Assembly (NCBI GenBank): GCA_003345555.1
Contig: PRDJ01000012.1
Coordinates: 1-32,000, forward strand
Origin: Candidatus Thorarchaeota archaeon
Lineage (GTDB): Archaea; Asgardarchaeota; Thorarchaeia; Thorarchaeales; Thorarchaeaceae
Reading direction: 5' to 3'
DNA length: 32,000 bases
The notes under the pieces are model-generated. The model was not told the DNA's origin. It saw nothing but the letters and a program-made list of their open reading frames with translations, and searched no databases. This document shows positions 1-25,735 of this stretch, piece after piece; the stretch's first letter is position 1, and every line of letters begins with the position of its first letter. The position numbers were made by a program, and so were the translations under genes.

Positions 1-1380
1 CTTGGTTCAAGCTACGTGGAAGCTCGATATGTCCGCGAACGGGCAAAGGGTGTCGGGTATCGAAATGGTGAGCTGCTCTCTGGCGGACAAGAACCCTCTT
101 CAGGGATTGGCGTTCGTCTGCTTGTTGGAGGCAGCATGGGTTTTGGATCCTTCGACAGAATGGAGAAGCAGCTGGCGGAGGATGCAGTACGCGCTGCATT
201 CCGCATGGCGAAGAATGCCAAGCGGAAGAAGAAGATTGAACTTGGCAAGTCAGTCAGCAATCGAGCTAGTTGGTCTGTCAAAGCAAAGCAGCCTCTCGAA
301 GACATTGGTGTCGATACCATGATGGCCACTGCTGAAGAGTTGAACAAGCAGATGGCAGGCCTTTCCTACTACACCCTGATGCTGATGCCGACCAAGATAG
401 AGAAGTACTTGGTAACCAGTGAAGGAACGGAAATCACTGCTGATACCTCGTTTACTCGGGTATTTGTCCTCCTGACAGCTGAAGGGAAGAACGGTTCGGA
501 ACAGAGAATCAAAGACTTGACACGATCTGGGGGCTGGGAGGCGTTCAAAGAATCCAAGTTGGCTGATGTTGTTGCCGATCAGGTATCTCACCTCAAGAGG
601 GCAGCAGAGGAAGCACAGAAAGTCCCTGAACTCCTAGATCAGCCCGTCGACATGATTGTCGGCTCAGAGGTAGCGGGTATTATCAGCCATGAGAACGTAG
701 GCCACCCTAGTGAGGGCGACAGAATCATGGGGAGAGAAGGTGCCCAAGCAGGGGAGAGTTTCTGGAGAGACCTCAAGATTGAGGAATCGAGGATAGGCTC
801 TACTGTCGTGAATGTCTCCGATGATCCCACCATTCCTCAGACGAGCGGGTTCTACTTGTATGATGATGAGGGGGTCAAGGCAAGGAAACGCCGCCTCATC
901 AAGAATGGAATTGCGAACGAGCCTCTTCTCAACAGGGAATTTGGTCTCAGATTCGGAAAAGAGTCAAACGGAGCTGCAAGATCCTCGAGTTACAATAGAG
1001 AGCCAATCATCAGAATGTCAAACACGTTTTTCGAGCCGGGTGATTTGACATTCGAAGAACTCATTGAGGACGTCAAGCTTGGCGTCTACATGAAGAGTTT
1101 CCAAGAATGGAACATAGACGACCGCAGGTTTCAGTCGAAGTATACCGGTTCTGAGGCATACTTGATTAGAAACGGAGAGCTCACTGACACAATGGTTCGT
1201 AGACCGGTACTTGAGACAACAAGCGTCGGTCTCCTGAGTGCGATAGACGGAGTCTCAAAGGAATTCGTGCTCGACTTCGCAGGAACATGCGGCAAAGGCG
1301 ATCCGATGCAGGGCGTTCCCGTCTATGCAGGCGGCCCACACATTCGCATCAGAAATGTTAGACTTGGAGGAATGGGTTGA
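1..1380 (+). CDS. tldD: TldD/PmbA family metalloprotease, catalytic TldD subunit (5'-truncated by window edge)
   Basis: Frame is open from base 1. HExxxH zinc motif (SHENVGHPSEGDR), DDPT..GFYLYDDEGV, PIIRMSNTFFEPG and C-terminal GTCGKG..Q.VPV..GGPH with the conserved Cys. Confidence 0.93.
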   Translation, partial: LGSSYVEARYVRERAKGVGYRNGELLSGGQEPSSGIGVRLLVGGSMGFGSFDRMEKQLAEDAVRAAFRMAKNAKRKKKIELGKSVSNRASWSVKAKQPLEDIGVDTMMATAEELNKQMAGLSYYTLMLMPTKIEKYLVTSEGTEITADTSFTRVFVLLTAEGKNGSEQRIKDLTRSGGWEAFKESKLADVVADQVSHLKRAAEEAQKVPELLDQPVDMIVGSEVAGIISHENVGHPSEGDRIMGREGAQAGESFWRDLKIEESRIGSTVVNVSDDPTIPQTSGFYLYDDEGVKARKRRLIKNGIANEPLLNREFGLRFGKESNGAARSSSYNREPIIRMSNTFFEPGDLTFEELIEDVKLGVYMKSFQEWNIDDRRFQSKYTGSEAYLIRNGELTDTMVRRPVLETTSVGLLSAIDGVSKEFVLDFAGTCGKGDPMQGVPVYAGGPHIRIRNVRLGGMG

Positions 1381-2759
1381 TGTCAAGTCTCGGTGAGCTG
1401 AAGTCTTTTGCAGATGCGGCGATCAATCGGGCAAGCGGAAGAGTCAGCGGTATCATTGCCAAGGTCATCCGCTCAACGGGATCACAAATCAGGTTCTCCC
1501 AGAGCCAAGTGGACATTTCAAACAGATGGGAGGACCTTAGGCTTGAGCTATTCGTGGTAGTGGGAAAGGCCAAGACATGCTCTTCACAGAGGTCAGTAGG
1601 TTCAGAGAATGACGTTCTAGCGGCTGTTGAAGACACTGTCTCCTTGGCGGAGCGTCTGCCTGAGTCTTCGATTTACCGCGGGATTGAAGAATCCACGACC
1701 CGCTTCGATGATTTGCCCGGTCAGTTCGATGAGCGAATCGACGACTATGTGGAGAGAGCTCCAGGAATAATCAACGCCGCGATTGGCGCTGCCTTAAGAG
1801 AAGGAGCCAAGAGGACAGCAGGAGCCCTCAAGTTTTCTAAGGACACTGCTTTCATGCGCTCAAGCCTCGGGCCAGAGGGAACAACAAAGAGAACGGCATT
1901 CGATTTCAATATCAGAGCTTTTCAGAATGAGCTTGACTACTCCGGTCAAGGCCTGTGCTGCGGCGTGAAACTGCTTGAGTCAGAACGTCAAGTTGTGGAG
2001 GCAGGTGCTCATGCGGGCATGTTGTCCAAGCAAGCTATAGGAGCTAAGCAGGGTGAGCCGGGCGTATACGACCTCGTGCTAAGCCCTACTGTAGCCGCTA
2101 ATGTGATGGGTTTCCTGCCTCAGACAGCTAACCCATACCTGATACTGACGGGTAGTTCTCCTCTAGGTGATAAGATGGGGCAGCTTCTTGGTTCGGAGGA
2201 AGTCAACGCATACGACGACGCAAGATACCCCGGAGGTCTGGGGTCTGCATCTTTCGACTTCGAAGGAACCCCGACACGAAGGACAACCATAATAGAGAAG
2301 GGAGTTCTGAAGTCGCTGATACACAATACAAGCACCGCAAAGATGTACGAAACGCAGTCAACCGGCAACTCACAGCTTATTCCGATTGCCTCCGGTCTAA
2401 TGATGTTGCTGCCAGGATCGACTAACGTCGTCTTCGATAACGGGACAATCTCGCCTGATTCTCTGTTCGAAGGTAACAGACCAACCATCTTCGTCACATC
2501 GAACTGGTACACGAGATGGCAGAACTACCAGACTGGTGACTTCTCAACAATACCGAGAGATGCGATGTTCTTGGTAAAGGACGGAAAGACGAAACCGATA
2601 AAGAATCTCAGAATCAGCGACAACATACTTCGCATGTTCAAGAACATAGCCGCATTAGGAAACGACAGAAAGCAAGTCTATTGGTGGGAAGTGGACGTTC
2701 CGACATTTATCCCCTCGATGAGGATTGCCGATTGCAGGATGACGGCAGCAACTCAATAA
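1380..2759 (+). CDS. tldE: TldD/PmbA family protein, non-catalytic TldE/PmbA subunit (459 aa)
   Basis: TGATG stop/start overlap with tldD. FDFEGTPTRRTTIIEKGVL, STGNS, GDFSTIP and IKNLRISDN motifs; no HExxxH. Confidence 0.85.
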   Translation: MSSLGELKSFADAAINRASGRVSGIIAKVIRSTGSQIRFSQSQVDISNRWEDLRLELFVVVGKAKTCSSQRSVGSENDVLAAVEDTVSLAERLPESSIYRGIEESTTRFDDLPGQFDERIDDYVERAPGIINAAIGAALREGAKRTAGALKFSKDTAFMRSSLGPEGTTKRTAFDFNIRAFQNELDYSGQGLCCGVKLLESERQVVEAGAHAGMLSKQAIGAKQGEPGVYDLVLSPTVAANVMGFLPQTANPYLILTGSSPLGDKMGQLLGSEEVNAYDDARYPGGLGSASFDFEGTPTRRTTIIEKGVLKSLIHNTSTAKMYETQSTGNSQLIPIASGLMMLLPGSTNVVFDNGTISPDSLFEGNRPTIFVTSNWYTRWQNYQTGDFSTIPRDAMFLVKDGKTKPIKNLRISDNILRMFKNIAALGNDRKQVYWWEVDVPTFIPSMRIADCRMTAATQ

Positions 2760-2776
2760 TCGACTCGTAGAGTCGA
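2760..2776. terminator. Short perfect hairpin between convergent tldE and GTPase genes
   Basis: tcgactc-gta-gagtcga (7-bp stem, 3-nt loop) starts at the base after the tldE stop. No U-tract. Confidence 0.3.
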
Positions 2777-2783
2777 CGCAGAC

Positions 2784-3335
2784 TCAGACCTGCTTGCTTT
2801 GCCTCAGTGATTGCAGGGTCATTCGACATGAGATTGCAGCATGCAAGAATATCTCGCTCACGTTCTGCCCAGTTTTCGCACTTGCCTCGAAGTATTGCAT
2901 TGACAGAAGCTCTGCCAAGTCTTGTCCTTCTTGCGATGTCAAAGCAAGCTTCTGAACCATGTCTGCCTTGTTGCCAACGAGGGAGCCCGTGAGGTGCATT
3001 CCGGGTGATGGGCATGCTCCCTGCGTAATCGCATCATACCACTTTGGAACTTCCTCGAAAGTTGGTCGGTCCGTCATGTCAAATACTAGAATAAGGTGAT
3101 GCGTTCCTTGATAGAAGCGATTTCTGAGAGAAATGAAAGACTGTTGACCGGCCAAGTCAATTACATCAAGAACCACCTTGCCGTCAGGGAAGTCAAGAGA
3201 AGCCACGTTCATATCAACGCCGATTGTGGCAGTGTACTGCGGCTCGAATCTGCCAGAGAGGTATCTCCGAAGAAGAGATGTCTTGCCCACATTTCGAGGA
3301 CCTGCAAGTATTATCTTGAAGACTTCAGTGGGCAA
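2784..3335 (-). CDS. Rab-like small GTPase (Ras superfamily), ~183 aa
   Basis: G1 GPRNVGKT, switch I YTATIGVDM, G3 DLAGQ, G4 NKAD, G5 EASAK. TTG at 3335 has GGGTGG upstream; the alternative start is GTG at 3395. Confidence 0.93.
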   Translation of the reverse strand: MPTEVFKIILAGPRNVGKTSLLRRYLSGRFEPQYTATIGVDMNVASLDFPDGKVVLDVIDLAGQQSFISLRNRFYQGTHHLILVFDMTDRPTFEEVPKWYDAITQGACPSPGMHLTGSLVGNKADMVQKLALTSQEGQDLAELLSMQYFEASAKTGQNVSEIFLHAAISCRMTLQSLRQSKQV

Positions 3336-3608
3336 TACTCGGAACCACCCTTGGTTGACACCGGCTGCGACGGGTTCACTTAAGAGAGTTCCCACGACGT
3401 CTGTTCAAAAGCCAGGTATCTTTTCACTGCTATGCCGCAAACAAAACCTGTTTGTTGCTTCGTAAAGAATTTCAGTGTGTTCAACCCGGACAACCCCAGA
3501 CAAGGTGACACCCGGCACTGGCGACAATGAAATCGGCTTTGGCCCTTTCATCACATGCCTTGAACAGCTCCACGGATCAATGGAGAGGTAAGTAAGGAGG
3601 AAGAGACG

Positions 3609-4793
3609 ATGAGAAAAGAGGAAGCAGCAATCAGGAAGGAAGAGGAGAAGATTAAGGAAAAGGAGGAGAGGATGCTTTCATCGTTTGCACACTCGTTCAG
3701 TCTATTCTGGGCATCAAAGCGACTGAGATGGTTAAGCGTAGTTTTTGTTTTTGGTCTGATTTGGACGACATTCATCTACAGTTATGGTCCGCATGTTATA
3801 CCAAGTGGCATTCTTCTTACCTTGACAATACTGACCGGCGGTCTATGGCCTTTCTTCTTCATGCTAGCAGCCGCTTTGGCGTTACTACATTTGGAACGAC
3901 TTATTGCAAGTCAGACATCCTACCGCAAGTCGTTCTCGATTCTGCTACCATGGCTTGCACTAAGCGGCTATTTGGTGCTGGTTGTCTGGACTCGTTTCTT
4001 GGCAGCGTTTCTTCTCTTGATATTTGGCGTAGCTTTCTTTGGTTGGGTTTCATTCCAAGCATTCTTTGCCACCAGAACCAGTCTGCACTACGCAGACGAT
4101 GTATACATGAAATCGCATAATCTGCTGATCAAGGGCCTCGCGGTTCTCAGCAATTTCTTCTGTTACGCAGCGATAATCGGGTCCTTCTATTTCACCGTCT
4201 ATGTACTGAATCCTTCTGAAATCCTTAATCAGCCCAGAGAAATTCCGCTAATCGTAGGAACTGTATTTGCCCTCGGTTTCAACTTCGCCAACTTCCTCTA
4301 CATGGTGAGGCATCGTCACACAACGATTCTCGACAATCTCGCTTTATTCGGCTTGTTCATCTCGCTCTACTCTGCCTATTTCATCTACGAAGCTGGCAGA
4401 CCCATTACCGTTGGCATCAACTGGGTCTCGGTATCAATCTCCGTCTTTTTTGTAATCTATACTATGGGCTCAGTTGGCGAGACCCTTAGAGAGAAATCAC
4501 ACATCCGCGCCCATTGGACATTGACAGCTGAGTCTTCAGCCGCCCTAACTTTCTTTCTCGCTTCGGGTTACTATTTCGCTGATGCGTTTCTCTCGGTATT
4601 GTTCGCAGAACCAGCGCTTGCTACAGCCATTGGCGTTACATTCAAGCTACTCATCTTTCCCTTCGTGGCTGTTTTGACAGAAGCACATCATATGATAACG
4701 CGAGTCGGGGCTCCCCCTGAGCGGACTCTGGTGCCGGATCAGATTGAGAGTGGTCCGGGCTCAACTGAGGGTGGTACGAGCAGTCTTCAGTGA
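3609..4793 (+). CDS. Polytopic membrane protein (~10 TM) of unknown function with charged N-terminal helix
   Basis: AAGGAGG RBS before ATG. About 10 hydrophobic segments; E/K/R-rich first 22 aa. No family motif recognised. Confidence 0.8.
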   Translation: MRKEEAAIRKEEEKIKEKEERMLSSFAHSFSLFWASKRLRWLSVVFVFGLIWTTFIYSYGPHVIPSGILLTLTILTGGLWPFFFMLAAALALLHLERLIASQTSYRKSFSILLPWLALSGYLVLVVWTRFLAAFLLLIFGVAFFGWVSFQAFFATRTSLHYADDVYMKSHNLLIKGLAVLSNFFCYAAIIGSFYFTVYVLNPSEILNQPREIPLIVGTVFALGFNFANFLYMVRHRHTTILDNLALFGLFISLYSAYFIYEAGRPITVGINWVSVSISVFFVIYTMGSVGETLREKSHIRAHWTLTAESSAALTFFLASGYYFADAFLSVLFAEPALATAIGVTFKLLIFPFVAVLTEAHHMITRVGAPPERTLVPDQIESGPGSTEGGTSSLQ

Positions 4794-4906
4794 AATGAGC
4801 CTCCCACTCTGCGCCTCAGGACTCATGACCGGCCCACGATAGAGACAGTACGCCTCGGCGAAAGAAAGGGTTTTAGCCTGACGAAGCTGGCACCGTTTGA
4901 CTGAAA

Positions 4907-5404
4907 TTGGTCGACCTGCGGAGCATCAGAGACAGGACGAAATCGGCAACCGAGTACATCGAATCCCTTCCTGAGAGTGAGAAACAGGGCTTCTTGGACG
5001 TGTATGAGGACTATCAGCTGGACTTTGGAATCGTTGAGGCATTAAGGAAGCTCGCTAGGGACGTGACAATCGTGGTTCTCAGTGCAGGCTGGTGCAAGGA
5101 CTGCAAGAACGCTATTCCCGTTCTAGCACATCTTGAGGAAGAGATTGACCTCGATGTCAGAGTGTTCGGTGGTATAAAGACCGCTCCGCTCGACCCCAAA
5201 CATAAGTGGGCCATACCTCCCTCTCCCCCTGAGGTTGAGGAATGGAAAGTGAAGGCGATACCTTGGATTGAGATCTTCGACAAGAGAGGAAACAGGGTCG
5301 GGACAATCATTGAAAAGCCTACGGTAAAGACCACACTAGAAGCTGAGCTGCTATATGTTCTGGAAAACAAGACACGGCCGCCTTCGAAACGGCAGACGAA
5401 CTAG
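4907..5404 (+). CDS. Thioredoxin-fold protein (Thioredoxin_9-like)
   Basis: VVLSAGWCKDC CxxC active site and AIPWIEIFD cis-Pro loop. TTG start with gaaagggttttagc promoter-like sequence upstream. Confidence 0.85.
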   Translation: MVDLRSIRDRTKSATEYIESLPESEKQGFLDVYEDYQLDFGIVEALRKLARDVTIVVLSAGWCKDCKNAIPVLAHLEEEIDLDVRVFGGIKTAPLDPKHKWAIPPSPPEVEEWKVKAIPWIEIFDKRGNRVGTIIEKPTVKTTLEAELLYVLENKTRPPSKRQTN

Positions 5405-5754: not shown

Positions 5755-8169
5755 ATGAACTTTAGAGCGAAGTACGCGCTCCTTGCCGTGTTCATCGGGG
5801 TCACTCTTGTGATGCCGATGTGCGCCGGGAGTGCGACAAGCACGCCTCGTCTGAACTCTTCTGTTCAAGAGTCGACCGTTGATGGCCCAGAAAGCATTCA
5901 GGCCATGGAAGTCGTGGACTCATTTATAGATCCATGGGGTGGAGTATACAACGTGGTTGGCGGTGCTTACAACGCCACTCAATACGGGTTCTCCCACATA
6001 ACGGCGCTCCAGAACGTAGTGAAGAATCAGATGCAGAACGATGACGGATATGTCAGCATGTCGGTGTTCGAACTGAGCGGCATGACGGCATTTCCGAATG
6101 GAGTTGTCGGTGGGCCCACAGCTATGCTGGAGATTGTCGTCAGCCCAGTGATTATCGTACCGACACTGAGAGAGAATACCTATTTCGCGGACCTTTCCCA
6201 AGCTGAAGCAATAGCCCTCGCTGACGCAGTCGCAGCGACCTACGAGACCGCACTCACAATTGACCTACAGAGATTCATGACAGTCCAGACGGAGATAACT
6301 TTCTCCTTCTCTTACGACATATACCCGAGTGTCTTCTGTGAGGGCATTTCGTACATGATGACCTATATGGCTCTCTTGACAGCTGACCAAGGTATAGCCG
6401 CAATGAATGCCCTATTGGCCAGACTAGCCAGTCTGGGCGGTGTAATGTCCCTCTTAGGAGCACCCAACTGGCCCGAACTACTCACTTCGGCAGTGGAGAC
6501 TTACATCCCGCACCATTTCATGCCACATTATGAAACATCCTATCCAATGGTTATGAACATGTTCGGCAGCGTAGGCAAGCCCTACATCAGATCTGGAAAT
6601 GTCAATGACACTCAGACAGTCCAGTCGCTGGTGGTTGCGGGTGCAGCCTTCAACTACCCCGGGTATGTCACAGCAGTGGATGGCAATGAGACTTATTCAC
6701 TGAAGACACATGTTGGCTACACCGGAAACATTGAGAACAAGATGCAGCAAGACAGCAGTGCCATGTCAATCTTGGCTTTTGGAGGTCAGGCACCTAGCTC
6801 TCTCACTATGTATGGCATACCGGCCGGGTGGCTAAGAGTCAACGACCAGTTCCAACTGCCAGCCAATGTTACCATTGGCGATTTCACCATTCCAGCAAAC
6901 AGCACCATTTCTGACGCTATCCGTATGGTACTCTCATACCTGCCCCGGCAGGGCGCGCTATCCGTGAACGAAGGCATTGGCGGACTCAACAACACGATGC
7001 TTGATTTCATCGCCGACTTCTGGAGTTCGCCGGGCCTATTGATAGATCTCAGGGATATGGTCCTGGCTCTCAACTACACACTTACAACTCCAGTAACAGA
7101 GATGAACTACGATCTGTTGGCATCCATGATGAGAAGAGCTGGGATGACACCGGATACTCTAGTCAGCAAGATCGATTCAACTCTCGCAGCCAAGTCGCCA
7201 GTTGGTGCCTTGGTCAAAGCCTTTGTGGGATACTTCGATAGCTATCACGTCCTGGACATTCTCGAAGCCGACAACTATGCCAACGCTCCTGCTTTCGCGG
7301 CATACTTGAACACCTTCATTGGCGGTGTCGAGAAAGCTCTGCACGACTTCGGCGGCCTCGACGTGACTACCCAATTCACGACCAAGGAAGGGATAGCTAC
7401 TTTCGTTGAGGAGCATTGGGGTATTGTGTTGCAGGCTCTGTGGACGGCAATGGCTGCCAATGACCTGCCAGGAGTCAAGAGTGCTTTTCACAACATCCTC
7501 GACCCAACAAACCTTCAGGAACATATCACTCCGTACTTGATGGCAGATCTTGGTTCCTCACTGATCGCTGGCCTCGGCTTCCAGTTTGCAGTCAACTTCA
7601 ATGGAACAACATTGTTCCCCTTGTCAACTAGTGATCTGAGCCTCAGCTTCGAAGCTGACCCCGCGTCACTCGACATTAACGGCCCGTACTTGGCTATCGT
7701 CAAGGGTACCAGCACGAGAACCGTCACAGAAGGACAGATTGTCACCTTCAACATTACAGTGCACAACTATGGTGACGCAACTGCTTACGACGTGAAGGTT
7801 CTTGACGGCATTTGCGCGGGTCTAGACGGAGAAAGGCCCTATTACTGGACTAAGTCCACGTTGGCCGCAGGTGAAACCTGGTTATTTGACTATCAGGTCA
7901 CGGCAAGTGACGCAGGTCTCTACATGGACATGCCTGCCATTTGCGTCTACTTCAACCAGAGCTTGAGCACTTTTGACCCAGCTGCTGCAGAGAACTGGAC
8001 CGGCAGTGCCAGATACACTCTTTCAGCAATAGGCTACCAGATACTTGTCGAGGGCGGAAGTTGGTGGCCGTCTACACTCTTCGGCATCCCCACTCTCTAC
8101 GTAGTCGCTGGCGTTGGCGGTGTCGCAGTGTTGGGCGTGGCTTTGCTCGTCATTAGAAGAAGAGGGTAG
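5755..8169 (+). CDS. Large secreted, C-terminally anchored surface glycoprotein, paralog A (804 aa)
   Basis: GAGGAG RBS then MNFRAKYALLAVFIGVTLV signal peptide. About 12 NxS/T sequons. DUF11-like Ig motif (VTFNITVHNYGDATAYDVKVLD), then TM and RRRG tail. The ORF-track start at 5635 is probably too long. Confidence 0.88.
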   Translation: MNFRAKYALLAVFIGVTLVMPMCAGSATSTPRLNSSVQESTVDGPESIQAMEVVDSFIDPWGGVYNVVGGAYNATQYGFSHITALQNVVKNQMQNDDGYVSMSVFELSGMTAFPNGVVGGPTAMLEIVVSPVIIVPTLRENTYFADLSQAEAIALADAVAATYETALTIDLQRFMTVQTEITFSFSYDIYPSVFCEGISYMMTYMALLTADQGIAAMNALLARLASLGGVMSLLGAPNWPELLTSAVETYIPHHFMPHYETSYPMVMNMFGSVGKPYIRSGNVNDTQTVQSLVVAGAAFNYPGYVTAVDGNETYSLKTHVGYTGNIENKMQQDSSAMSILAFGGQAPSSLTMYGIPAGWLRVNDQFQLPANVTIGDFTIPANSTISDAIRMVLSYLPRQGALSVNEGIGGLNNTMLDFIADFWSSPGLLIDLRDMVLALNYTLTTPVTEMNYDLLASMMRRAGMTPDTLVSKIDSTLAAKSPVGALVKAFVGYFDSYHVLDILEADNYANAPAFAAYLNTFIGGVEKALHDFGGLDVTTQFTTKEGIATFVEEHWGIVLQALWTAMAANDLPGVKSAFHNILDPTNLQEHITPYLMADLGSSLIAGLGFQFAVNFNGTTLFPLSTSDLSLSFEADPASLDINGPYLAIVKGTSTRTVTEGQIVTFNITVHNYGDATAYDVKVLDGICAGLDGERPYYWTKSTLAAGETWLFDYQVTASDAGLYMDMPAICVYFNQSLSTFDPAAAENWTGSARYTLSAIGYQILVEGGSWWPSTLFGIPTLYVVAGVGGVAVLGVALLVIRRRG

Positions 8170-8188
8170 TCCCTCTAGTGCATACCCA

Positions 8189-8234
8189 GGTCGCGCGTCG
8201 TTCGTGACGGCGCGCTGACCCTTCTCTTTTTCTC
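8189..8234 (+). terminator. Hairpin plus pyrimidine/T tract downstream of paralog A
   Basis: ggtcgcgcgtcg-ttcg-tgacggcgcgctgacc is a bulged GC-rich stem with a TTCG loop, followed by cttctcttttttct. Confidence 0.6.
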
Positions 8235-8452
8235 ACGTTTGTCATCAACCGTATCAACCGGGTCTGTTGGACATAGGGTGAATTGAAAGAGACAATTCCG
8301 TGTGTTGCCGATCCGATTCAGTTTGCGTGTGTTCGGCATATCTTCATATGCCATCGACTCGGTTGCCCTGTGCTCGTGATAGATTGACCAAAGGGCGACG
8401 GCATCCCAACCGCAGGATAGCCCACAGAAGCGAAGTCACCGCAGCCTTTGCA

Positions 8453-10858
8453 GTGAGGCACTTACTTCCAGCAGTATTCCTGAGTGCCTGCCTTTTGTTT
8501 TCTAGCGCGGCAGCAGGTTTCGCACAACTACAATTGACAACCCTTGGCACATCACTACAATCCGGTTCAACGCTTGGCCCAGCTGCGATTGAGTTGATGG
8601 AAACCCTCATTGACCCTTGGGGAGGCGTACACAACATGATTGCCTCGGTGCAGAACGGAACTCATTATGGCTATCCCTCTGTACAGGCCTTAGAGGCAAT
8701 TGTCAATCACCAACTTGCGTTCGACAGCGGATATGTGGCGGAGATTGCCTTCGTGCTTCTCGGAAAGACCATCTTCCCCAACGGCGTAATCGACGGACCG
8801 ATGGCAGTGATGCAGCTCCAGATTGAGCCTGTGTTTGTGTGTCCCGCCAATCGAGCAGATGCAGCATTCGCGAATCTAACGCAGAATGAAGCCATAACTC
8901 TAGCGCAAGAAGCAGTGTCAGTCTATCAAACAGCTCTTTCAATCGATCTTGAGAGACTCATGATGATCGAGTCACAGGAGCATTTCTACTTCAACCTCAG
9001 TCTTGCTCCCGGGGTGGACTGTTACGGTAAGGGTTACTGGCTAACTTACGTTGGCTTATTCATGAATGAGGAAGGCAGCGCCGTTACGAGTGCTTTTAGA
9101 CAGCGCCTTGCCGCCCTTGGTGGGTTCATGAATCTCGTCGGTGCGCCGAAATGGCCTGATTTGGCGACAATCGCAGCCGAGGGATACATGTCTTGCTACT
9201 CTCTCCCAGATTACGACTCTCGGGGTTCGGTTGTCGACATGCTTCTCAAACACGTTCGACCTTTGATTAGGTCCGCGCATCCGGATCTCGAAGGGAGAGT
9301 TCAATCGGTCATTGCCGGCGTAGCAGCATTCAACAAGCTGAATCAAGTGATGCCGGGACCGGGCGAAGAAAGTTACTCTCTCAAGAGCGACGTGGGCTAT
9401 TCTTCTGCCATCATGAACAAGATGCAGCAGGACATTACTGCTGCGGCCGTCTCGATGGTTGGCGCCGAAGCACCGGGGCACTTGACCGTCGACGGGCTGC
9501 CTTCGTCATGGCTGTCTGTTGACAACGAATTTCCCAATCCCACCAATATCTCGCTGCCCGGAGGATTCGTTATTCCTGCAAACATGAGCGTGGCCGAGAC
9601 GGTGCTCATGCTCCTCGGCTCCATTCCCAAACAGCTTGCACTGGATCTGAATTCGCAGATTGGCACAATTCAGGCTGACACTCTTGATCAATTGCTCGAA
9701 GATATCTGGGGAGGAGGCGGTTTCCCCTTGGATCTCAAGGCATTACTGCTTGCCCTTGACTACTCCACATTAACATCCCCCGTCATCGACATAAATTACG
9801 ACACCCTAGCAGCAATAATGAGGAGAGCTGGCTTGACTCCAGACACACTAATCGACCTGATTGACCCTTCAGTCGCAGAAGAGAGTCCCGTTGGTGCAAT
9901 AGCAGAGGCTTTTGTCAAGTACTTCGACAGCTACAGAATACTGGACATACTGGAGGCAGACCATTACACTTCCCCGTCCGAGACACTAGGCTATCTGAAC
10001 CCCTTCATCCAAGGACTGGAGCAGGCGCTCCATGACATCGGCAATATCGATATGCCTTCGGAAGCAAGAACCAAGGAAGGCTTGGCCGCCTTTGTCGAAA
10101 AGCACTGGGACATCGTGCTGGGAGCGTTATGGAGTACCATGGCGGGCGGTAATCTCACTGCAATACAAGGCAGCCTGCATGCTATCCTCAATGTTACCAA
10201 CCTGCAGGAACACATTACGCCATACCTGATGGTTGACCTTGGCTCGCCCCTCATTGCTGGCACAGGGTTTGTCTTTGCCACAAACTACGAATCGAGCACT
10301 GGCCAGTTCACGGGGATGTCGGCAGATGATTTGAGAACTGTCTTTGATTTAGATCTCCAGAGACTTGCTTTCGACGGACCGTACCTTATTGTGGCCAAGC
10401 ACACTGACAGTGGGTCATTGCTTCTTGGGCAGAACGCGAATTTCACGATAGAGGTACACAACTTTGGAAATGAGACAGCTTACGACATCAAGGTTTTGGA
10501 TGGCGTCAGCTCAGGTTTCGATGGCCAACGTCCCTACTACTGGACCAAAGACGCACTGGCACTAGGTGAGAGCTGGGTAATCAACTATACAGTAAGAGCC
10601 AACGATACAGGTTTGTTCCTTGACATGCCAGCGATCTGCATATACTTCAACACAACTCTGAGCAGCTTTGACCCGGCTCACCCCAGTAACTGGACAGGAA
10701 CGGCGAGATATACGTTTTCAGAATTCGGTCACGAGATCAGAATCGAGGGGCAGAGTGGCTGGCAAGCTTGGCCTGTCGAGTACTCAATCGTGGTATTAGG
10801 GTGTGCGGCCGCGCTGGCCCTGGTGATATGCTTAGCACGAAGGCGCCCACACTCCTAG
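8453..10858 (+). CDS. Large secreted, C-terminally anchored surface glycoprotein, paralog B (~801 aa)
   Basis: Colinear with paralog A (IDPWGGV, FPNGV, NKMQQD, MRRAGxTPDTL, YFDSY, NLQEHITPYLM). GTG at 8453 begins a signal peptide and gives nearly the same length as A; the alternative start is ATG at 8348. About 12 sequons; TM plus RRRPHS tail. Confidence 0.86.
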   Translation: MRHLLPAVFLSACLLFSSAAAGFAQLQLTTLGTSLQSGSTLGPAAIELMETLIDPWGGVHNMIASVQNGTHYGYPSVQALEAIVNHQLAFDSGYVAEIAFVLLGKTIFPNGVIDGPMAVMQLQIEPVFVCPANRADAAFANLTQNEAITLAQEAVSVYQTALSIDLERLMMIESQEHFYFNLSLAPGVDCYGKGYWLTYVGLFMNEEGSAVTSAFRQRLAALGGFMNLVGAPKWPDLATIAAEGYMSCYSLPDYDSRGSVVDMLLKHVRPLIRSAHPDLEGRVQSVIAGVAAFNKLNQVMPGPGEESYSLKSDVGYSSAIMNKMQQDITAAAVSMVGAEAPGHLTVDGLPSSWLSVDNEFPNPTNISLPGGFVIPANMSVAETVLMLLGSIPKQLALDLNSQIGTIQADTLDQLLEDIWGGGGFPLDLKALLLALDYSTLTSPVIDINYDTLAAIMRRAGLTPDTLIDLIDPSVAEESPVGAIAEAFVKYFDSYRILDILEADHYTSPSETLGYLNPFIQGLEQALHDIGNIDMPSEARTKEGLAAFVEKHWDIVLGALWSTMAGGNLTAIQGSLHAILNVTNLQEHITPYLMVDLGSPLIAGTGFVFATNYESSTGQFTGMSADDLRTVFDLDLQRLAFDGPYLIVAKHTDSGSLLLGQNANFTIEVHNFGNETAYDIKVLDGVSSGFDGQRPYYWTKDALALGESWVINYTVRANDTGLFLDMPAICIYFNTTLSSFDPAHPSNWTGTARYTFSEFGHEIRIEGQSGWQAWPVEYSIVVLGCAAALALVICLARRRPHS

Positions 10859-11068
10859 TTGTAGCCGGGGTCTGGAACTGATGACCTCTCATGTTTTCCT
10901 CCGAGATGTCCCAATCGATACAGTATGGGTCGAATCTGCCCAAATGAACCCGAATTTGGCACTTCAGGACGACCTACGCGAAGCCTTTTATTGCGACTGC
11001 GCTCAGCCCGTGTTTATAGGACGACCCAAGAAACCGTTCTAGATTTCCGAACAATAGGAGATTTCGTA

Positions 11069-11380
11069 ATGCCTAAGAAACCAGAAAAGAAGACCCCTCC
11101 TGGGCAAGCGAAGAAGCCAGCTCCTAGCCCTGCAAAGCCAGCTCCAGCTGCCCCAGCGAAGCCAGCTCCCCCTCCGGCAAAGCCAGCTCCCGCTCCGGCC
11201 CCTACGCCAGCCGGTGCGTTCGAGAAATGGGAGTGCCAAGTCTGTGGTTACATCTACGACGAGGCCAAGGGAGACCCCGATGGCGGGATCAAGCCTGGCA
11301 CTAAGTTCTCGGCACTGCCGGATGATTGGGTATGCCCCATGTGCGGTGCTTCCAAGGAAGACTTCGAGAAAGTCAAGTAA
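11069..11380 (+). CDS. Rubredoxin with ~50-aa Lys/Pro/Ala-rich N-terminal extension (103 aa)
   Basis: [37 protein letters not shown] is a canonical rubredoxin. AGGAG RBS before ATG at 11069 and tttatagg TATA-like box at about 11013. Confidence 0.93.
11114..11190 (+). repeat. Four direct copies of aagccagctcc (KPAP) in the rubredoxin tail
   Basis: Copies start at 11114, 11135, 11159 and 11180 (spacing 21, 24, 21 nt). Confidence 0.9.
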
Positions 11381-11438: not shown

Positions 11439-14033
11439 TCACCTGTTGCGGCCGGCCTCCCTCAAGAGGCGAACAACGTCTGTATTGACCGCTCTCTTCG
11501 TCACGTAGTATACAGCGAGGAGTGATGCAATGAGGGAGAGGACAACCAAGAAGAGAGTCCTAAAGTCAGCTATGATAAAGAGGCCGCCACTGAAGTGAAT
11601 CACCAAGTTTCTCAGTGCGAGCTCAACTCCAATGCCGGCGGCGCACCCTAAAATCACTCCGGATATCATAGGAACTGAACTCTCAGCTGCAAGTGTCCGT
11701 GCAATCTCTTTGTCCCTCATGCCGAGGGATGCGAGCATTCCAAGTTCTCTTCGGCGTGATGATGAGACAACCCAGCTACTGATTAAAGCACTGACTAACG
11801 CAGATGCGAAAAGCGATATCAACGAGGCATCAATGAGTATCTCGATTGAACGCAGAGCTGACACATAATCGGCCTCAAGAATCGAGACCAGAACGGGGTA
11901 AGCGCCCGGCACCGAGAAGAGCTCCTTGATGACTGCCGCGGGATCAGTGGACTCGATAAGCAGACTGCCAGCCTTGAATGGTTCTCCTCGAATGATGCCC
12001 CAAGTCTCCATGCTCACTATAACAAAGGTCGGCTCTACGGTCGAGAGCATGAAGACTGGCACTGCTGATTCGCTTATTGCGACGACCGTCAGATTCGCAA
12101 TGGCACCTACATGCACAGTATCTCCAAGACCGAGACCAAGAAAGTTAGCCGCATACTCTGATACTGCACAGGACATTGGTTCCAAGATGACATCCAAACC
12201 GCGCGTGAGATTGACAGACTGAAGAATTCCTAGCGACGCCAGCCGCTCCAAACCATGGGGCTCAGCTCCCATGAGAAGGCCATCTCCGAACAGCGACGAA
12301 TGCCATATGATTTCTAGGGCCTGATTCATTGGGACAACAGTCGTGATGTTGGGAATACTCTGGATTTCTGATATAATCTCTAAGTCAGCAGGTGGGTTCA
12401 TGTAGACAACTACATTCGCAGACGTAGTCTGTCCCGCAATGTTCCTCTTCCATGATTCCGTTATCACATATCCAACATTGGTGGATGCGAAATATAGGAC
12501 AGTGGAAGAGGCAAACAGGTTGAATACTACTAGGCCTGCAAGGGTGTTTCGTCTCAGATTCCTACTCGAAAGGATCCTCACGACCTCCGATGCGCCTACC
12601 ACGGCAGGCCAAAGAAACCTGCGAGAACTTGCAAGGTTCGGTGAAAGGGCGGCTACTAACAGGATTAGCGCCGGAATCGAGAGTATGCGAATTGAGGCTA
12701 TCTCAATGATGTGCAAATCGAGAAAATCAGAGACTGCTTGTAGTGCAACAATGGATGTAAGCGAGACAGCGACGGTGCCCACAGCCGCCCGAACTCGTTT
12801 TCGACCTGACCTAGAGAGCAAGCGGCCAGCCCCGGCAGGGGGCAGGGCTCCCGACCCGAGACTAGTGGCAACGGACTCCCTAGATGCGCGCCAAGCTGGC
12901 AAGTAGCCCGCCATTAAGGTCAGGGCAATACCAAACAGACAAGCTATAATCACACTGAGAGGGTCTACGGTCGCAAGACTCCTGAAGTATTGACTCATAA
13001 TACCGACATAAGTGATTCGAGCGAGAAGGACTAGGAAGTTGAGGACAACAGTGCCAATCACGAGACCAAGGCCGATGCCCAATGCGGCTCCGACGATACC
13101 GATTGTGCCGACTTCTGCAAGAAGAAGAACCAGAACATTTGATCTCGAAGCCCCGAAAGCAAGGACCACGCCAGTCTCGTAGCGCCGCTGACTGAATATC
13201 ATCGCGAATGAGGAGAATACCCTGAACACTGCTGTGAAAGATGACACAGCTACAAGTGCTAGCAGAACTGTCTGCGCTTGGCTAAGGAACAGTGATGAAA
13301 GCTTCAGGGGATAGACCTTGAGATTGGTGACCGTGAAACCCTCGCCGCACACTGCCTTTATGTAGTCTGTAGCGGCGGGTGCTGCAAAGACATCATAGAG
13401 CTCAATCAGTAACTTGTTACTGGAGTGTGCTTCGTATCTTATGCTGTAGATCTCCCATGCTCGCTCTAACGATATGAAAACCACAGGGCCGATGACTCCT
13501 TTGTCAATGGCGAGACCGTAACCTGTTATGTTGAAGAAAGCAGCGGCAGCACTTGTGTGTAATGTGAGAAGATCGCCCAACGAGACATTCAACAACTCGA
13601 TGGCGTCCATTGTCAGAAAGCACCCGTCGCCTGAGATGTCAAGAGAACCAGCTGTTGCGTTCAAACTGCCTATGCCAGATTCACTTTGCAGGTCGAGGCC
13701 CACCAGGAATACGTAGATTCCGCTGGTGAGATTCTCATACGTAGCATATTCCTCTATTCTGGGAATCGCTCTCATCACACTGGGTCCACTAAGTATGTCT
13801 GACCTCATTTGTGTAGTAATCGGCTGCCCCCACCTCGTAGCTGACACCGATATGTCTACAGGGGAGAGTGTTGCTTTCAGAAAGAGGTTGGCGCTGTTCT
13901 CTAGGCTGCTGCTGGCAGAGAGAGCAGTATAAAGAAGACTCACCGAGATGGCAATCGACATCACCGTGACAGCGGCTACTCTCTTCCGTCGCAACGCGTT
14001 TCTGAAACCTATGCGAGCCAGCTCTCGTACCAA
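11439..14033 (-). CDS. FtsX/LolE/MacB-type ABC permease with duplicated architecture (~864 aa)
   Basis: Two halves, each TM + large extracellular domain + 3-TM FtsX module (QRRYETGVVLAFGASRSNV and RRRELGMLASLGMRDKEI). Start uncertain: TTG at 14033 chosen because 14171 overlaps the divergent gene region. Confidence 0.88.
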   Translation of the reverse strand: MVRELARIGFRNALRRKRVAAVTVMSIAISVSLLYTALSASSSLENSANLFLKATLSPVDISVSATRWGQPITTQMRSDILSGPSVMRAIPRIEEYATYENLTSGIYVFLVGLDLQSESGIGSLNATAGSLDISGDGCFLTMDAIELLNVSLGDLLTLHTSAAAAFFNITGYGLAIDKGVIGPVVFISLERAWEIYSIRYEAHSSNKLLIELYDVFAAPAATDYIKAVCGEGFTVTNLKVYPLKLSSLFLSQAQTVLLALVAVSSFTAVFRVFSSFAMIFSQRRYETGVVLAFGASRSNVLVLLLAEVGTIGIVGAALGIGLGLVIGTVVLNFLVLLARITYVGIMSQYFRSLATVDPLSVIIACLFGIALTLMAGYLPAWRASRESVATSLGSGALPPAGAGRLLSRSGRKRVRAAVGTVAVSLTSIVALQAVSDFLDLHIIEIASIRILSIPALILLVAALSPNLASSRRFLWPAVVGASEVVRILSSRNLRRNTLAGLVVFNLFASSTVLYFASTNVGYVITESWKRNIAGQTTSANVVVYMNPPADLEIISEIQSIPNITTVVPMNQALEIIWHSSLFGDGLLMGAEPHGLERLASLGILQSVNLTRGLDVILEPMSCAVSEYAANFLGLGLGDTVHVGAIANLTVVAISESAVPVFMLSTVEPTFVIVSMETWGIIRGEPFKAGSLLIESTDPAAVIKELFSVPGAYPVLVSILEADYVSALRSIEILIDASLISLFASALVSALISSWVVSSSRRRELGMLASLGMRDKEIARTLAAESSVPMISGVILGCAAGIGVELALRNLVIHFSGGLFIIADFRTLFLVVLSLIASLLAVYYVTKRAVNTDVVRLLREAGRNR

Positions 14034-14191
14034 AGTCTTCTTGGTTCCGTCGTGGTGATGGATTGGAACTGACCCTAGTACCTTTTCAAGATTCCACTTA
14101 CGAACCGCCCCATTTGCCCGGGCCCGTCGAAAGGTCCTTATGGGCCGATACACGAGGTCGACAATTAACATCGTCAGAAGGTTCCGACATC

Positions 14192-16739: not shown

Positions 16740-18377
16740 GTGCAGAAAAATCAAATGACAGCGATTGTGGTCATAATAGTGGTCATCGCCGGAGCGGCAG
16801 GTGCGTACTATTTCTTAGCACCTCCTGCTAGTGTAACCATTGTCATAGGTACTACCGACTCTGTCGAGGCGGCTCTGGACATGGCCCTAGCCTATGACTA
16901 CTTTGGCTGGGAACTCATAACGTGCCTCAGCGCGGGGCTCGTTGACATAAGACCCGGATCGCAGGCTGGAGCCTCTGACATAATCCCTGCCTTAGCGACG
17001 GATTGGATTATGAGTGGCGAGGGTAAAATCTGGGACTTTGAGCTGCGAACTGGTGTGACCTACGATGGTGTCAGACCCTTCAATGCGACCTGTGTCAAGT
17101 ACACCTTTGATAGGAACTGCAACTTGACAGGCGTGGGTCTATACGAACCAGACGGCCCACAGCTAAACATGGACTACCAGGGTATAATAAAGAACGTCAC
17201 CATACTGGAAACCTACAAGGTCAGGTTCAACCTCAAGATTGCATTTGCACCATTCTTGCAGCTCTTGGCTTGTGCTGCATCCTACATAGTGGATCCAGTG
17301 CGTGCTCCGATGAAGCAAGTCATCATGTACAATGGCACAAACTTGGCCGGGAGTACGTCTTGCGGACTGGGACCGTATGTGCTTGAGAAGTGGGATCGTT
17401 CGGGAACCATCGACAAGGAGGTATGGCTGAAGAAGAACCCCTACTACTGGAACGTAACAGGTGGTATTCCGAAGAATACTGAAATCATCATAAAGAAGTA
17501 CACCGATGCTACATCGTTGGCCACGGCCATGGCTGCTCTCGAGATCGACATTGCATACAGGCAGTTGCTGCCTGAGCAGGTCCAAGCCTTCGAGAACAAC
17601 ACGAGCGTTAAGGTGTGGAAAGGGATAGGAGCACAGATTCAGTATATGTGCTTCCAGCAGAGAATCTACCCATTCAACGAGACGGATGTGAGGATAGCTG
17701 TTGCTGCCTGCCTGAACAGGACTAACATCTGCAGTACTGTGTTCCGTGGTACGGCCGACCCGCTGTACAGCATAATCCCGAACGGAATGGCGTATCACAA
17801 GAGCTCCTTCGCGAAGTATGGCACAGCCAACTATACATATGCAGCTAGCCTTCTAGCGCCATTCGGGTACAATGCCACGAATCACCTCGTCATAGACTTC
17901 TGGTACGAGAGCTCAGGACACTATCCGTCAAGTGCTCAACAAGCCTTGGTCTATGAATCCGACTTCGAAGAGAGCAACGTAATAGATGTCAATCTTCATG
18001 GAGTGGACTGGGGTACCTACAAGGGCCTTAGAGACAACGGAACAATGCCGGTGTTCGTGTACGGATGGTACCCAGACTTCGTGGACCCCGACAACTACGG
18101 CTTCCTGCCATTTGCGGCTTGGTTGAACATGGACTACGACAGCACACATCCACAAGGCGGTATCGACATGAACAAGTACTGGACAGATGCTCGAAGTGCG
18201 ACAACGAGTGCAGGCCGTCTTGGCAACTATACTGCTCTGCAGGATCTGCAGGCCTCTGAATGTTCGGTTGTGCCTCTCTGGCAGAAGAGCACTGAGGCTG
18301 TGACTAAGCTCGACATAAAGGGCATAGTCTTTGACATAACTGTCAACTGGCGCAACTGGCTCCTGTATAGAGGGTAA
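16740..18377 (+). CDS. oppA: Peptide/nickel ABC transporter substrate-binding protein (family 5, DppA/OppA-like)
   Basis: GGAGG RBS then GTG. N-terminal TM anchor of archaeal type; GLGPYVLEKW, QYMCF, DVRIAVAACLNR and YGWYPDFVDPDNY motifs; many sequons. Confidence 0.92.
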   Translation: MQKNQMTAIVVIIVVIAGAAGAYYFLAPPASVTIVIGTTDSVEAALDMALAYDYFGWELITCLSAGLVDIRPGSQAGASDIIPALATDWIMSGEGKIWDFELRTGVTYDGVRPFNATCVKYTFDRNCNLTGVGLYEPDGPQLNMDYQGIIKNVTILETYKVRFNLKIAFAPFLQLLACAASYIVDPVRAPMKQVIMYNGTNLAGSTSCGLGPYVLEKWDRSGTIDKEVWLKKNPYYWNVTGGIPKNTEIIIKKYTDATSLATAMAALEIDIAYRQLLPEQVQAFENNTSVKVWKGIGAQIQYMCFQQRIYPFNETDVRIAVAACLNRTNICSTVFRGTADPLYSIIPNGMAYHKSSFAKYGTANYTYAASLLAPFGYNATNHLVIDFWYESSGHYPSSAQQALVYESDFEESNVIDVNLHGVDWGTYKGLRDNGTMPVFVYGWYPDFVDPDNYGFLPFAAWLNMDYDSTHPQGGIDMNKYWTDARSATTSAGRLGNYTALQDLQASECSVVPLWQKSTEAVTKLDIKGIVFDITVNWRNWLLYRG

Positions 18378-24135: not shown

Positions 24136-25725
24136 TTGACAGAGCTGCGCACGGAAATCTCGCGAGTGACCATCTTCAGGGATGGAGCCCGAGTTACTCG
24201 CACGGGCAAGGTGTTACTGGATTCCGGGACCCAAAGGGTGCTTGTGGGTGGTATTACGGAATACGCGCATGAAGACAGCTTCCGAGTAAAGGGCTCGGGT
24301 CCAGCTACTCTATCGAGCATTGATGTCAGAAGAACAGTGGAGACCTACGAACCCAAGAGCGACCTGAAGCCCTTGCTCGATGAACTCAAGAAGCTCAATT
24401 CGGAACGCGAAGCGACAGCTGATGAAATCGCCATATTCAGCGGTCGGCTGTCGTATCTTGAAGCCATGAACGCGGCGTTTGCTGGCAACTTTGGTCTTCT
24501 CTTCGCCGCCAGTGAAGCAGAGGTTTCTCAGTTGACCGAAATGGATACAGTCTCGGGTCGAAGCATAGTCGAAACGAAGAGCAAAATCCGCGAGCTCGAG
24601 AAGAAACTGAGGGACATTGACGACAGAATCAACTCAGTGAAGAAGAATCTTGGAAGAATCGAATCTGAGAAGAAGACTGAGAGTTTCTTCGAAGTCGAAA
24701 TAACTATCGACGTGTCGAAGAAGGCACAAGTTGAGCTCGAAGTCACTTACCAAGTTGCAAACACAGGATGGCGCCCGAGTTATGATTTAGATCTTCTTCC
24801 GGGTTCGGCGAAGCTAAGGAGAGTAGCTCTGCTATACAACCAGACTCGAGAGCCATGGCAAAAGGTAGCCCTAACTGTCTCAACTGCCACTGCAAAGCCA
24901 GTTGAAGCAGTCGAAGCCAGTCCCTTCTACATTACAGCTTACGACCCCGAAGAAGAACGCCGTCGAATGCGAGCTATGAAAAAGGAGATGGCACCGAAAA
25001 TGAGACCTCCTCCTCCGCCCGCAACAATGGCAGCTCCAGCTCCGTCTATGGCGCCACCAGCTCCAAAGCCAGTCATTTCTGAACAGCTTGCACAAGTCTC
25101 CGAACTCGCATCAGGCATCTCAGTATATGAGCTGCCTAGCCGGGTCACGGTTCCCTTTGGCAACGACGAGCATCCATTCACGCTCCTCGAAGAGGAATTG
25201 AAGTCGTCGACAATCCATTACTGGTATGCCGATGGTATGCCAGAGCCAGTAGCTCAGGACGAAGTCACAAACGGTGACACAGTCATATTGCCCGGGAAAG
25301 TGAAGGTCTATGCAGAAGGGGACTACATAGGCGAGTCGACCGTATCACAGATATCGCCTCGAGAGAAGTTCAAGATGGGTACTCGGGTTGCCTATGATGT
25401 GAAGGTAAAGAAGAAGCTCACTTCCCGGGAGATAGAGAAAGCAGGCATAACCCGCGGTAAACTGAGAAGGGCTTACTCGTATAGTCTGGAGATTGAGAAT
25501 TTCGGAAAGACGCCCATCAAGATTGAGGTGTATGATAGAGTACCCCACAGCCTTAACCCATCTATCGAGGTCAAGGGCAATTGGGGTCAGCATCAGCCGG
25601 AGAGTAGTGAGCTTGGAGTGATAAAGTGGAGCCTCGATGTCGAGCAAATCAAGAAGAGGCAAATCGACTACAGCTACGAGGTTCTGTGGGAGCGAGGCAT
25701 CACCATAAGCCCACCATTGCCGTGA
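24136..25725 (+). CDS. DUF4140/DUF4139 (TIGR02231, MuiA-like) protein, paralog A (529 aa)
   Basis: ISRVTIFRDGARVTRTG, SFRVKG, long coiled coil, LEVTYQVANTGWRPSYDL, YNQTREPWQKVALTVSTA and LPGKVKVYAEGDYIGE. No signal peptide. Confidence 0.88.
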   Translation: MTELRTEISRVTIFRDGARVTRTGKVLLDSGTQRVLVGGITEYAHEDSFRVKGSGPATLSSIDVRRTVETYEPKSDLKPLLDELKKLNSEREATADEIAIFSGRLSYLEAMNAAFAGNFGLLFAASEAEVSQLTEMDTVSGRSIVETKSKIRELEKKLRDIDDRINSVKKNLGRIESEKKTESFFEVEITIDVSKKAQVELEVTYQVANTGWRPSYDLDLLPGSAKLRRVALLYNQTREPWQKVALTVSTATAKPVEAVEASPFYITAYDPEEERRRMRAMKKEMAPKMRPPPPPATMAAPAPSMAPPAPKPVISEQLAQVSELASGISVYELPSRVTVPFGNDEHPFTLLEEELKSSTIHYWYADGMPEPVAQDEVTNGDTVILPGKVKVYAEGDYIGESTVSQISPREKFKMGTRVAYDVKVKKKLTSREIEKAGITRGKLRRAYSYSLEIENFGKTPIKIEVYDRVPHSLNPSIEVKGNWGQHQPESSELGVIKWSLDVEQIKKRQIDYSYEVLWERGITISPPLP

Positions 25726-25735
25726 GGTGAACCAG

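Follow-up and report, generated by a model that had tools for sequence, protein, structure and literature searches.

In the 32,000-nt window that we analysed (contig PRDJ01000012.1 of a Candidatus Thorarchaeota archaeon, positions 1–32,000; its genome, labelled G000, is 93% complete), two neighbouring genes, A and B, encode what sequence comparison indicates to be members of a new, lineage-restricted family of predicted type I surface glycoproteins. Structure prediction gives their ectodomain a fold like that of lobe 1 of PIGT/Gpi16, the scaffold of the glycosylphosphatidylinositol (GPI) transamidase, with a unique helical insert of 220 residues. Based on the distribution of the family across genomes, we favour, with middling confidence, the view that the glycoprotein is a non-catalytic surface scaffold or binding module and the extracytoplasmic partner of a co-inherited Lol/MacB-type permease.

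The two genes had previously been described, in a sequence-only reading of the stretch, as colinear paralogs, and BLASTP confirms this over their full length: The open reading frames (ORFs) of both lie on the forward strand and align end to end over 808 columns with 45% identity, 65% positives and 15 gaps, and every shared motif listed in that reading recurs in the alignment. The start methionine of A is the same residue at which its homologues begin; the open frame of B extends from 8300, and the GTG at 8453 is the start that matches all homologues, with an ATG at 8348 as the alternative. The proposed layout of signal peptide, about 12 sequons, C-terminal transmembrane (TM) helix and basic tail was likewise recovered: Hydropathy places a hydrophobic segment at the N-terminus of each protein and one TM helix, followed by RRR, at the C-terminus, and the sequons number 12 in A and 13 in B, compared with 5.9 ± 2.2 and 4.2 ± 1.9, respectively, in shuffled sequences. 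A lipobox in the signal peptide of A was rejected, as the cysteine at residue 23 is not conserved in homologues. Three sequons are conserved across the family, namely N73 in 29, N382 in 23 and N734 in 30 of 31 members, and since the genome also encodes STT3/AglB, N-glycosylation of the family is likely. Codons of A and B differ at positions 1, 2 and 3 in fractions of 0.43, 0.29 and 0.64, in agreement with the earlier remark that third positions dominate. Because the proportion of synonymous differences (pS) is saturated at 0.79 while that of nonsynonymous differences (pN) is 0.35, the duplication appears to be old and purifying selection on both copies is supported.

A first structure model of the full-length protein was poor. 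A second model, comprising residues 45–640 of A and built from 27 family sequences, reached a predicted local distance difference test (pLDDT) value of 89.7 and a predicted template modelling (pTM) score of 0.84. It consists of a large twisted β-sheet with flanking helices (residues 45–384 plus the closing strands 605–640), into which a compact domain of about 14 short helices (residues 385–604) is inserted; the long amphipathic helical region of the sequence-only reading is replaced by this domain. The insert carries the most conserved motifs of the family, MRRAGxTPDTL, YFDSY, HW..LQALW and NLQEHITPYLMxDLGS. A fold search, which had been proposed as a check, was conducted exhaustively with the model and ranked PIGT/Gpi16 first by a wide margin, with no match to an enzyme family. 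The PIGT alignments cover model residues 1–596 and hence may include the closing strands (563–589 of the model). In PIGT, ten twisted antiparallel strands make up lobe 1, described as a ‘half-rib cage’; lobe 2 forms a β-sandwich beside the membrane, and there is one C-terminal TM helix (PMC9098846). The rib-cage fold of lobe 1 is present in the predicted model, and the glycoproteins have the PIGT-like type I topology of a lumenal domain, a β-sandwich and a single C-terminal TM helix.

At the sequence level, the Gpi16 profile (PF04113) matched nothing in G000 at E up to 1 and none of 27 family members at E up to 10. The body found no PDB chain at E up to 10 and no family in Pfam or NCBIfam, and PDB sequence searches with family profiles yielded only noise. 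The claim that the body belongs to no known family consequently stands for the N-terminal 600 residues, which also bears out the idea of an undescribed cell-surface family, and fails for the C-terminal 130 residues before the TM helix, which match DUF11. In the ESM Atlas, the nearest models are archaeal hypothetical proteins of 382 residues (TM-score 0.55 by the match), followed by weaker structural matches to DUF3857, LppM, DUF2207 and DUF7345; these archaeal neighbours indicate that the PIGT-like fold is not confined to eukaryotes. A search of the same atlas by features returned only DUF11-type clusters with scores below 0.8.

For the membrane-proximal module, DUF11 (PF01345) scores 33.7 bits in A and 26.5 bits in B at a cut-off of 24.6, and TIGR01451 remains below its own cut-off in both. 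CARDB and TRAP_beta are weaker than DUF11 on the full-length proteins (Pfam): TRAP_beta (PF05753; cut-off 22.4) reaches 20.8 and 20.2 bits with full-length A and B, and 25.6 bits with the module of A alone. Scanned in isolation, the C-terminal module is matched by DUF11 in 17 and by TRAP_beta in all 18 of 18 members (E 0.01 or below). As the TRAP_beta model also cross-matches ordinary archaeal DUF11 clusters in the ESM Atlas, we read the module as an immunoglobulin-like (Ig-like) stalk of the DUF11/CARDB/TRAP-β type, and not as a specific TRAP-β orthologue. The GIPT–TM–RRR end of A is conserved in distant family members and has a tripartite shape like a sorting signal. We nevertheless rejected an exosortase/archaeosortase signal: No CTERM sorting model reached its cut-off, GIPT is unshared, and no exosortase/archaeosortase (PF09721) was found in G000. 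A TM helix plus basic tail terminates 92 open frames of this genome (on contigs such as C36, C37, C39, C58, C65 and C68); among them, GIPT occurs in A only and is lacking in B, and we read the tail as an ordinary stop-transfer anchor whose juxtamembrane motif is specific to the family. Some of the 92 frames are ordinary permeases. Many long G000 proteins with such an end bear a poly-threonine stretch just before the TM helix, which suggests a shared stalk-and-anchor design of the surface proteins of this organism.

The family is narrowly distributed. An exhaustive HMMER search of 1.84 billion representatives found about 25 clusters (50% identity) that share the body, all other hits being DUF11 repeats; a word-index search returned nine close relatives, two of which are named Thorarchaeota by their sources, and a second one, started from an 18-sequence alignment, added no further family member. 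The survey across Asgard genomes that the sequence-only reading had suggested detected the body in 31 of 85 further genomes of a single GTDB family (called Thorarchaeota in the databases) and in 11 of the 23 high-quality genomes of that family; none of the 315 Asgard genomes outside it yielded a match. The copy number is usually one per genome. In a maximum-likelihood tree, B is sister to the clade that A forms with its close relatives and branches within the split from P0008 (support 97/94), with a branch length of 0.91 versus 0.22 for A, and the best identity of any collected sequence to B is 47%. B thus has the appearance of a genus-level, fast-evolving tandem duplicate. A tandem pair in genome G317 unites two older subfamilies and is a separate case from A/B. 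Because copies are mostly single, B is lineage-specific and without a closer orthologue, and the G317 pair is separate, hetero-assembling versions, which had been envisaged earlier, do not seem to be the norm of the family.

The distribution of the glycoprotein is closely matched by that of a duplicated FtsX-type permease, whose nearest solved sequences are LolF and LolC and which falls far below the cut-offs of the NCBIfam models lolCE and ADOP. Its orthologue group occurs in 32 of the 85 related genomes and, like the glycoprotein, in none of the 315 other Asgard genomes. If G000 is included (86 genomes), a comparison of the genome lists gives 29 genomes with both genes (29–30 shared genomes overall), three with only the glycoprotein, four with only the permease, and 50 with neither. 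The four permease-only cases deserve a closer look: In one, a C-terminal fragment of the glycoprotein lies at a contig end; in a second (G368, a single-contig genome), no glycoprotein body was found and a weak match to the last 30 residues of A, located beside the permease (L031:8545–8634, 73% identity, E 4.7), looks like the trace of a recent deletion that spared the 3' end; in the remaining two, the contig that carries the permease is short or ends beside it. Presence or absence of the pair is concordant in all 16 genera, with both genes present in 10 of them, and within polymorphic genera it is the same genomes that hold both glycoprotein and permease. PIG-U-like genes, which served as a negative control, overlap with the glycoprotein as chance predicts (9 observed versus 9.3 expected).

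The two genes usually share a genomic neighbourhood, but their arrangement varies. They can be convergent, with a small ORF or a rubredoxin gene between them, or, in a subfamily of 35% identity, head-to-head beside ABCE1, PNP and DeoC; distances of 1–14 kb were found, and in two genomes the genes are 26 kb and 330 kb apart. The occurrence in two contexts and several orientations, together with the retention at a distance, points to glycoprotein and permease as a functional pair. One context has an ATP-binding cassette (ABC)-type gene next to the pair; it is ABCE1/RLI and was dismissed as a partner ATPase. In two genera, a gene of 431–435 codons stands divergent beside the permease orthologue (L019:2492–3784 and L031:12138–13445; none in the window); its L019 copy contains a histidine-kinase-type ATPase domain (HATPase_c), an arrangement reminiscent of BceB-type permeases, which are paired with sensor kinases. 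In G333 (C3:298135–303842), a genome of the same genus as G000, the glycoprotein gene is matched in three consecutive pieces and the adjacent permease in two overlapping pieces, one with an internal TGA, which could reflect decay of the pair or assembly errors.

Taken together, we propose the following mode of action. The glycoprotein, in which no catalytic motif is recognizable, would act as a surface scaffold or binding module and work as the extracytoplasmic partner of the FtsX-type permease. Hydrolysis of ATP by a separate ATPase would power mechanical work on the outer side of the membrane, as in LolCDE–LolA, FtsEX–EnvC and MacB–MacA. This work could serve either of two ends: A membrane-embedded hydrophobic or lipid-anchored cargo may be handed to the rib-cage and helical module, or the permease may drive a conformational change in this module. 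Binding of a hydrophobic ligand by the ectodomain, one of the options of the sequence-only reading, is a possibility for which both the coupling with a Lol-type permease and the resemblance of the fold to PIGT speak indirectly. A would be the principal copy, the one covered in RNA libraries, while B, having arisen by tandem duplication within the lineage of the genus and evolving about four times faster with all family motifs kept, is probably a specialised or alternately used variant. A further-reaching version, which we regard as unlikely, pictures an undescribed archaeal extracytoplasmic machine: Driven by ATP, the permease would pull a lipid, or a molecule anchored by one, out of the membrane and transfer it to the PIGT-like rib-cage scaffold, and the layout of rib-cage, Ig-like domain and TM helix would be remotely but genuinely homologous to accessory subunits of the PIGT and TRAP-β type in the eukaryotic endoplasmic reticulum (ER). 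If true, it would provide a prokaryotic example of the work of such scaffolds before their recruitment to GPI-anchoring and translocon complexes.

Several considerations weigh against the proposed partnership. The match to PIGT, itself obtained with a predicted model, is one of shape only, and the argument for a coupling of glycoprotein and permease is drawn from genomes. Since kin genomes are not independent and adjacent genes can be deleted together, the co-occurrence overstates the link; moreover, no ATPase gene adjoins the pair. The main rival, possible though clearly the less probable of the two, is a stand-alone adhesin or receptor without any functional tie to the permease, the co-distribution being that of a variable genomic island gained and lost as a block. 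Such a block would fit the main context, where the segment missing in other genomes consists of the glycoprotein, the small ORF or rubredoxin, and the permease; patchy distribution and a fast-evolving B are also features of variable surface proteins, and G000 has many other candidate type I proteins with TM helix and basic tail. However, the pair persists in a second, unrelated context with another orientation and is kept even across 26 kb or 330 kb, whereas no other gene of the ‘island’ has stayed with it across both contexts. The signal peptide, the many sequons, the C-terminal anchor and the length of about 800 residues would fit a structural envelope protein that forms an S-layer or canopy, as the sequence-only reading had suggested, and the cover of the gene by RNA-library contigs in wetland samples would agree with this. 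We nonetheless consider this role improbable: Only 11 of the 23 high-quality genomes of the family and no other Asgard genome hold the gene, neither an S-layer nor a PGF-CTERM model in Pfam or NCBIfam matches, no archaeosortase was found, and the glycoproteome of a cultured Asgard archaeon revealed no S-layer protein (PMC11284389).

Room for an enzymatic role is left by the near-invariant residues H554, D453, D495 and D598 in the helical insert, which would then house the active site of an extracellular enzyme and which is among the best-conserved regions (53% identity between A and B, versus 42% for the rib-cage and 56% for DUF11); yet A and B match no enzyme family by sequence or fold and show no recognizable catalytic motif, so that we hold an enzyme to be very unlikely. 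Even less credence is due to the idea that the glycoprotein is a true, highly diverged PIGT/Gpi16 homologue and the scaffold of an archaeal GPI-transamidase-like complex for C-terminal lipid anchoring. PIGT/Gpi16 is by far the best structural match and has its parts in the same order, and a PIG-U-family protein above the Pfam cut-off is encoded elsewhere in G000. Against this stand the lack of any Gpi16 profile or PDB sequence signal at the E-values given above, the closer structural neighbours among archaeal hypothetical proteins in the ESM Atlas, the limitation to one family, which argues against an ancestral role, and the fact that PIG-U-like genes do not co-vary with the glycoprotein. Peptidase C13/PIGK, GAA1 and PIG-S were not found in G000 either, although 93% completeness cannot prove the absence of GPI-transamidase subunits, which in turn counts against our own reading. 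A literature search for Asgard archaea combined with GPI transamidase found nothing. The PIG-U-family protein is a membrane protein of 516 residues (L029:1129–2676, corresponding to C42:38431–39978) that scores 42.8–44.6 bits (cut-off 24.5) over profile positions 56–225 of 378 and matches no other Pfam family at E 0.01 or below; PIG-U-like matches occur in 25 of the 86 genomes, and these proteins may be glycosyltransferases of the GT-C type rather than PIG-U proper. Finally, viruses or mobile elements could be the source of such a protein, since their envelope or fusion glycoproteins would share the type I architecture, a β-rich head, a helical region and a TM helix with basic tail. This origin is hardly credible and the least probable of all, as no entry of the viral structure library matched at E 0.001 or below, housekeeping genes flank the pair in a window of even composition with synteny across genera, and the helices are short and packed instead of forming long heptad coils.

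RNA-library contigs from three studies, at 99% identity or higher, cover gene A over positions 5807–8181; gene B is represented by few short contigs only. Several neighbouring genes are uncovered in the same RNA runs, and a DNA run covers everything evenly. We take these data only as support for transcription of A in wetland sediments and for an unequal representation of the two genes; they derive from assembled contigs, by which the expression of genes cannot be ranked. No RNA-library contig bridges positions 8181–8929, an absence of cover that by itself proves nothing. The terminator postulated between the genes is real insofar as a GC-rich hairpin followed by a T-rich run folds with −25.6 kcal/mol over 81 nt (z = −2.74), although a simple terminator scan did not list it. 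Together with the unequal cover, it makes the suggested independent regulation of A and B plausible. Scans of the window for tRNA and Rfam families were empty. Within the 18.4 kb compared, the deepest RNA-library contigs belong to the gene of a family-5 solute-binding protein (16740–18377) in an Opp/Dpp-type ABC operon, with word depths of 38 and 14–24 in two studies. A solute-binding protein of this kind was the main glycoprotein detected in P. syntrophicum, a cultured Asgard archaeon (PMC11284389).

Table 1. Positions of the glycoprotein genes, their parts and associated features in the window.
Feature	Position	Strand	Description and basis
Gene A	5755–8169	+	804 aa, type I membrane glycoprotein (predicted); ORF and translation
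Gene B	8453–10858	+	801 aa, paralog with the architecture of gene A (predicted)
Signal peptide of A	5755–5832	+	residues ~1–26 (predicted); hydropathy and N-termini of homologues
Rib-cage β domain, main part	5887–6906	+	A residues 45–384; PIGT/Gpi16 lobe-1-like (predicted)
Family-specific multi-helix insert	6907–7566	+	A residues 385–604 (predicted)
Closing strands of the rib-cage	7567–7674	+	A residues 605–640 (predicted); strands at model residues 563–589
DUF11/CARDB/TRAP-β-type Ig-like domain	7675–8064	+	A residues 641–770; putative membrane-proximal stalk
GIPT motif, single TM helix, RRRG tail	8065–8166	+	A residues 771–804; hydropathy
Intergenic GC-rich hairpin, then T-rich run	8189–8235 (hairpin 8189–8220)	+	candidate terminator of A
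Duplicated FtsX-type permease (Lol/MacB-like, type VII ABC)	11439–14171	−	910 aa; Pfam FtsX in two stretches
Conserved core cassette	16–5404		two TldD/PmbA genes, Ras-family GTPase (opposite strand), Thioredoxin_9 protein with WCKDC, 10-TM protein with acidic tail

The surroundings of the glycoprotein gene are partly conserved. In six of eight loci compared, it follows a thioredoxin-like gene and the gene of a 10-TM protein, near a Ras-like GTPase and two TldD/PmbA genes. The 10-TM protein (3609–4793 in the window) occurs in 81 of the 86 genomes, most of which have an additional, more distant match at another site, and the core cassette also occurs without the glycoprotein. For these reasons, the 10-TM and thioredoxin-like genes were dropped as specific partners; a complex prediction for the 10-TM protein with residues 600–804 of A gave a score of 0.00, which is evidence neither way. 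The order of the two genes in the window, 10-TM before thioredoxin, is reversed in all other loci seen. Between B and the permease, the window encodes a rubredoxin with a Pro/Lys/Ala-rich N-terminal arm (10925–11380); G379 (L033) has a rubredoxin at the corresponding site, with 74% identity over 51 residues, and other genomes have an ORF of 120–134 codons at this position. A DUF4139/DUF4140 pair further downstream (24136–27328) proved unrelated to the glycoprotein family by hhalign.

Knowledge of the Asgard cell surface is extremely scarce: Cultured representatives seem to be S-layer-free (PMC11284389), and glycosylation has been demonstrated for a solute-binding protein only. Against this background, the present analysis contributes a lineage-specific glycoprotein family with a confident predicted structure and a specific candidate partner, and its ectodomain is the first prokaryotic protein found here that has PIGT as its closest solved structural neighbour. 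Should the permease link be real, type VII ABC mechanotransducers would have a partner of a novel kind, and one in archaea; should the PIGT likeness reflect ancestry, it would bear on the origin of ER-lumenal scaffold subunits. Even on a conservative reading, there remain a new domain family and a testable two-gene module.

A comparison with known systems delineates the family further. PIGT/Gpi16 (PDB 7W72, 7WLD, 9UB7) and the predicted A and B proteins run in parallel from rib-cage to Ig-like sandwich to TM helix; however, identity is about 10% without profile-level similarity, PIGT/Gpi16 lacks the 220-residue helical insert, the genomic partner here is an FtsX-type permease instead of PIG-U, and the family is limited to one archaeal family. 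With DUF11/CARDB surface proteins (PF01345, TIGR01451), A and B share a membrane-proximal domain above the DUF11 cut-off as well as the C-terminal TM helix and basic tail that are common in such archaeal proteins, but those proteins have arrays of the domain, whereas A and B contain a single DUF11 and consist to 75% of an unrelated body. TRAP-β (SSR2, PF05753) likewise combines an Ig-like domain with a single TM helix and a short tail, although full-length A and B score below its cut-off and the PDB sequence match is at noise level (E 0.26). Archaeal S-layer glycoproteins, such as Haloferax SLG and Sulfolobus SlaA/SlaB, are also secreted, N-glycosylated, C-terminally anchored and large, yet they have no domains in common with A and B, for which neither PGF-CTERM nor an archaeosortase was found. 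The partners of type VII ABC systems (LolA/LolCDE, EnvC or PcsB/FtsEX, MacA/MacB) resemble the glycoprotein in their tight genomic coupling to an FtsX-domain permease and in acting outside the membrane, as its predicted extracytoplasmic location would imply. In contrast, LolA, EnvC, PcsB and MacA have no sequence or fold similarity to the glycoprotein, and the glycoprotein, whose coupling is deduced from genomes only, is predicted to be membrane-anchored and glycosylated itself.

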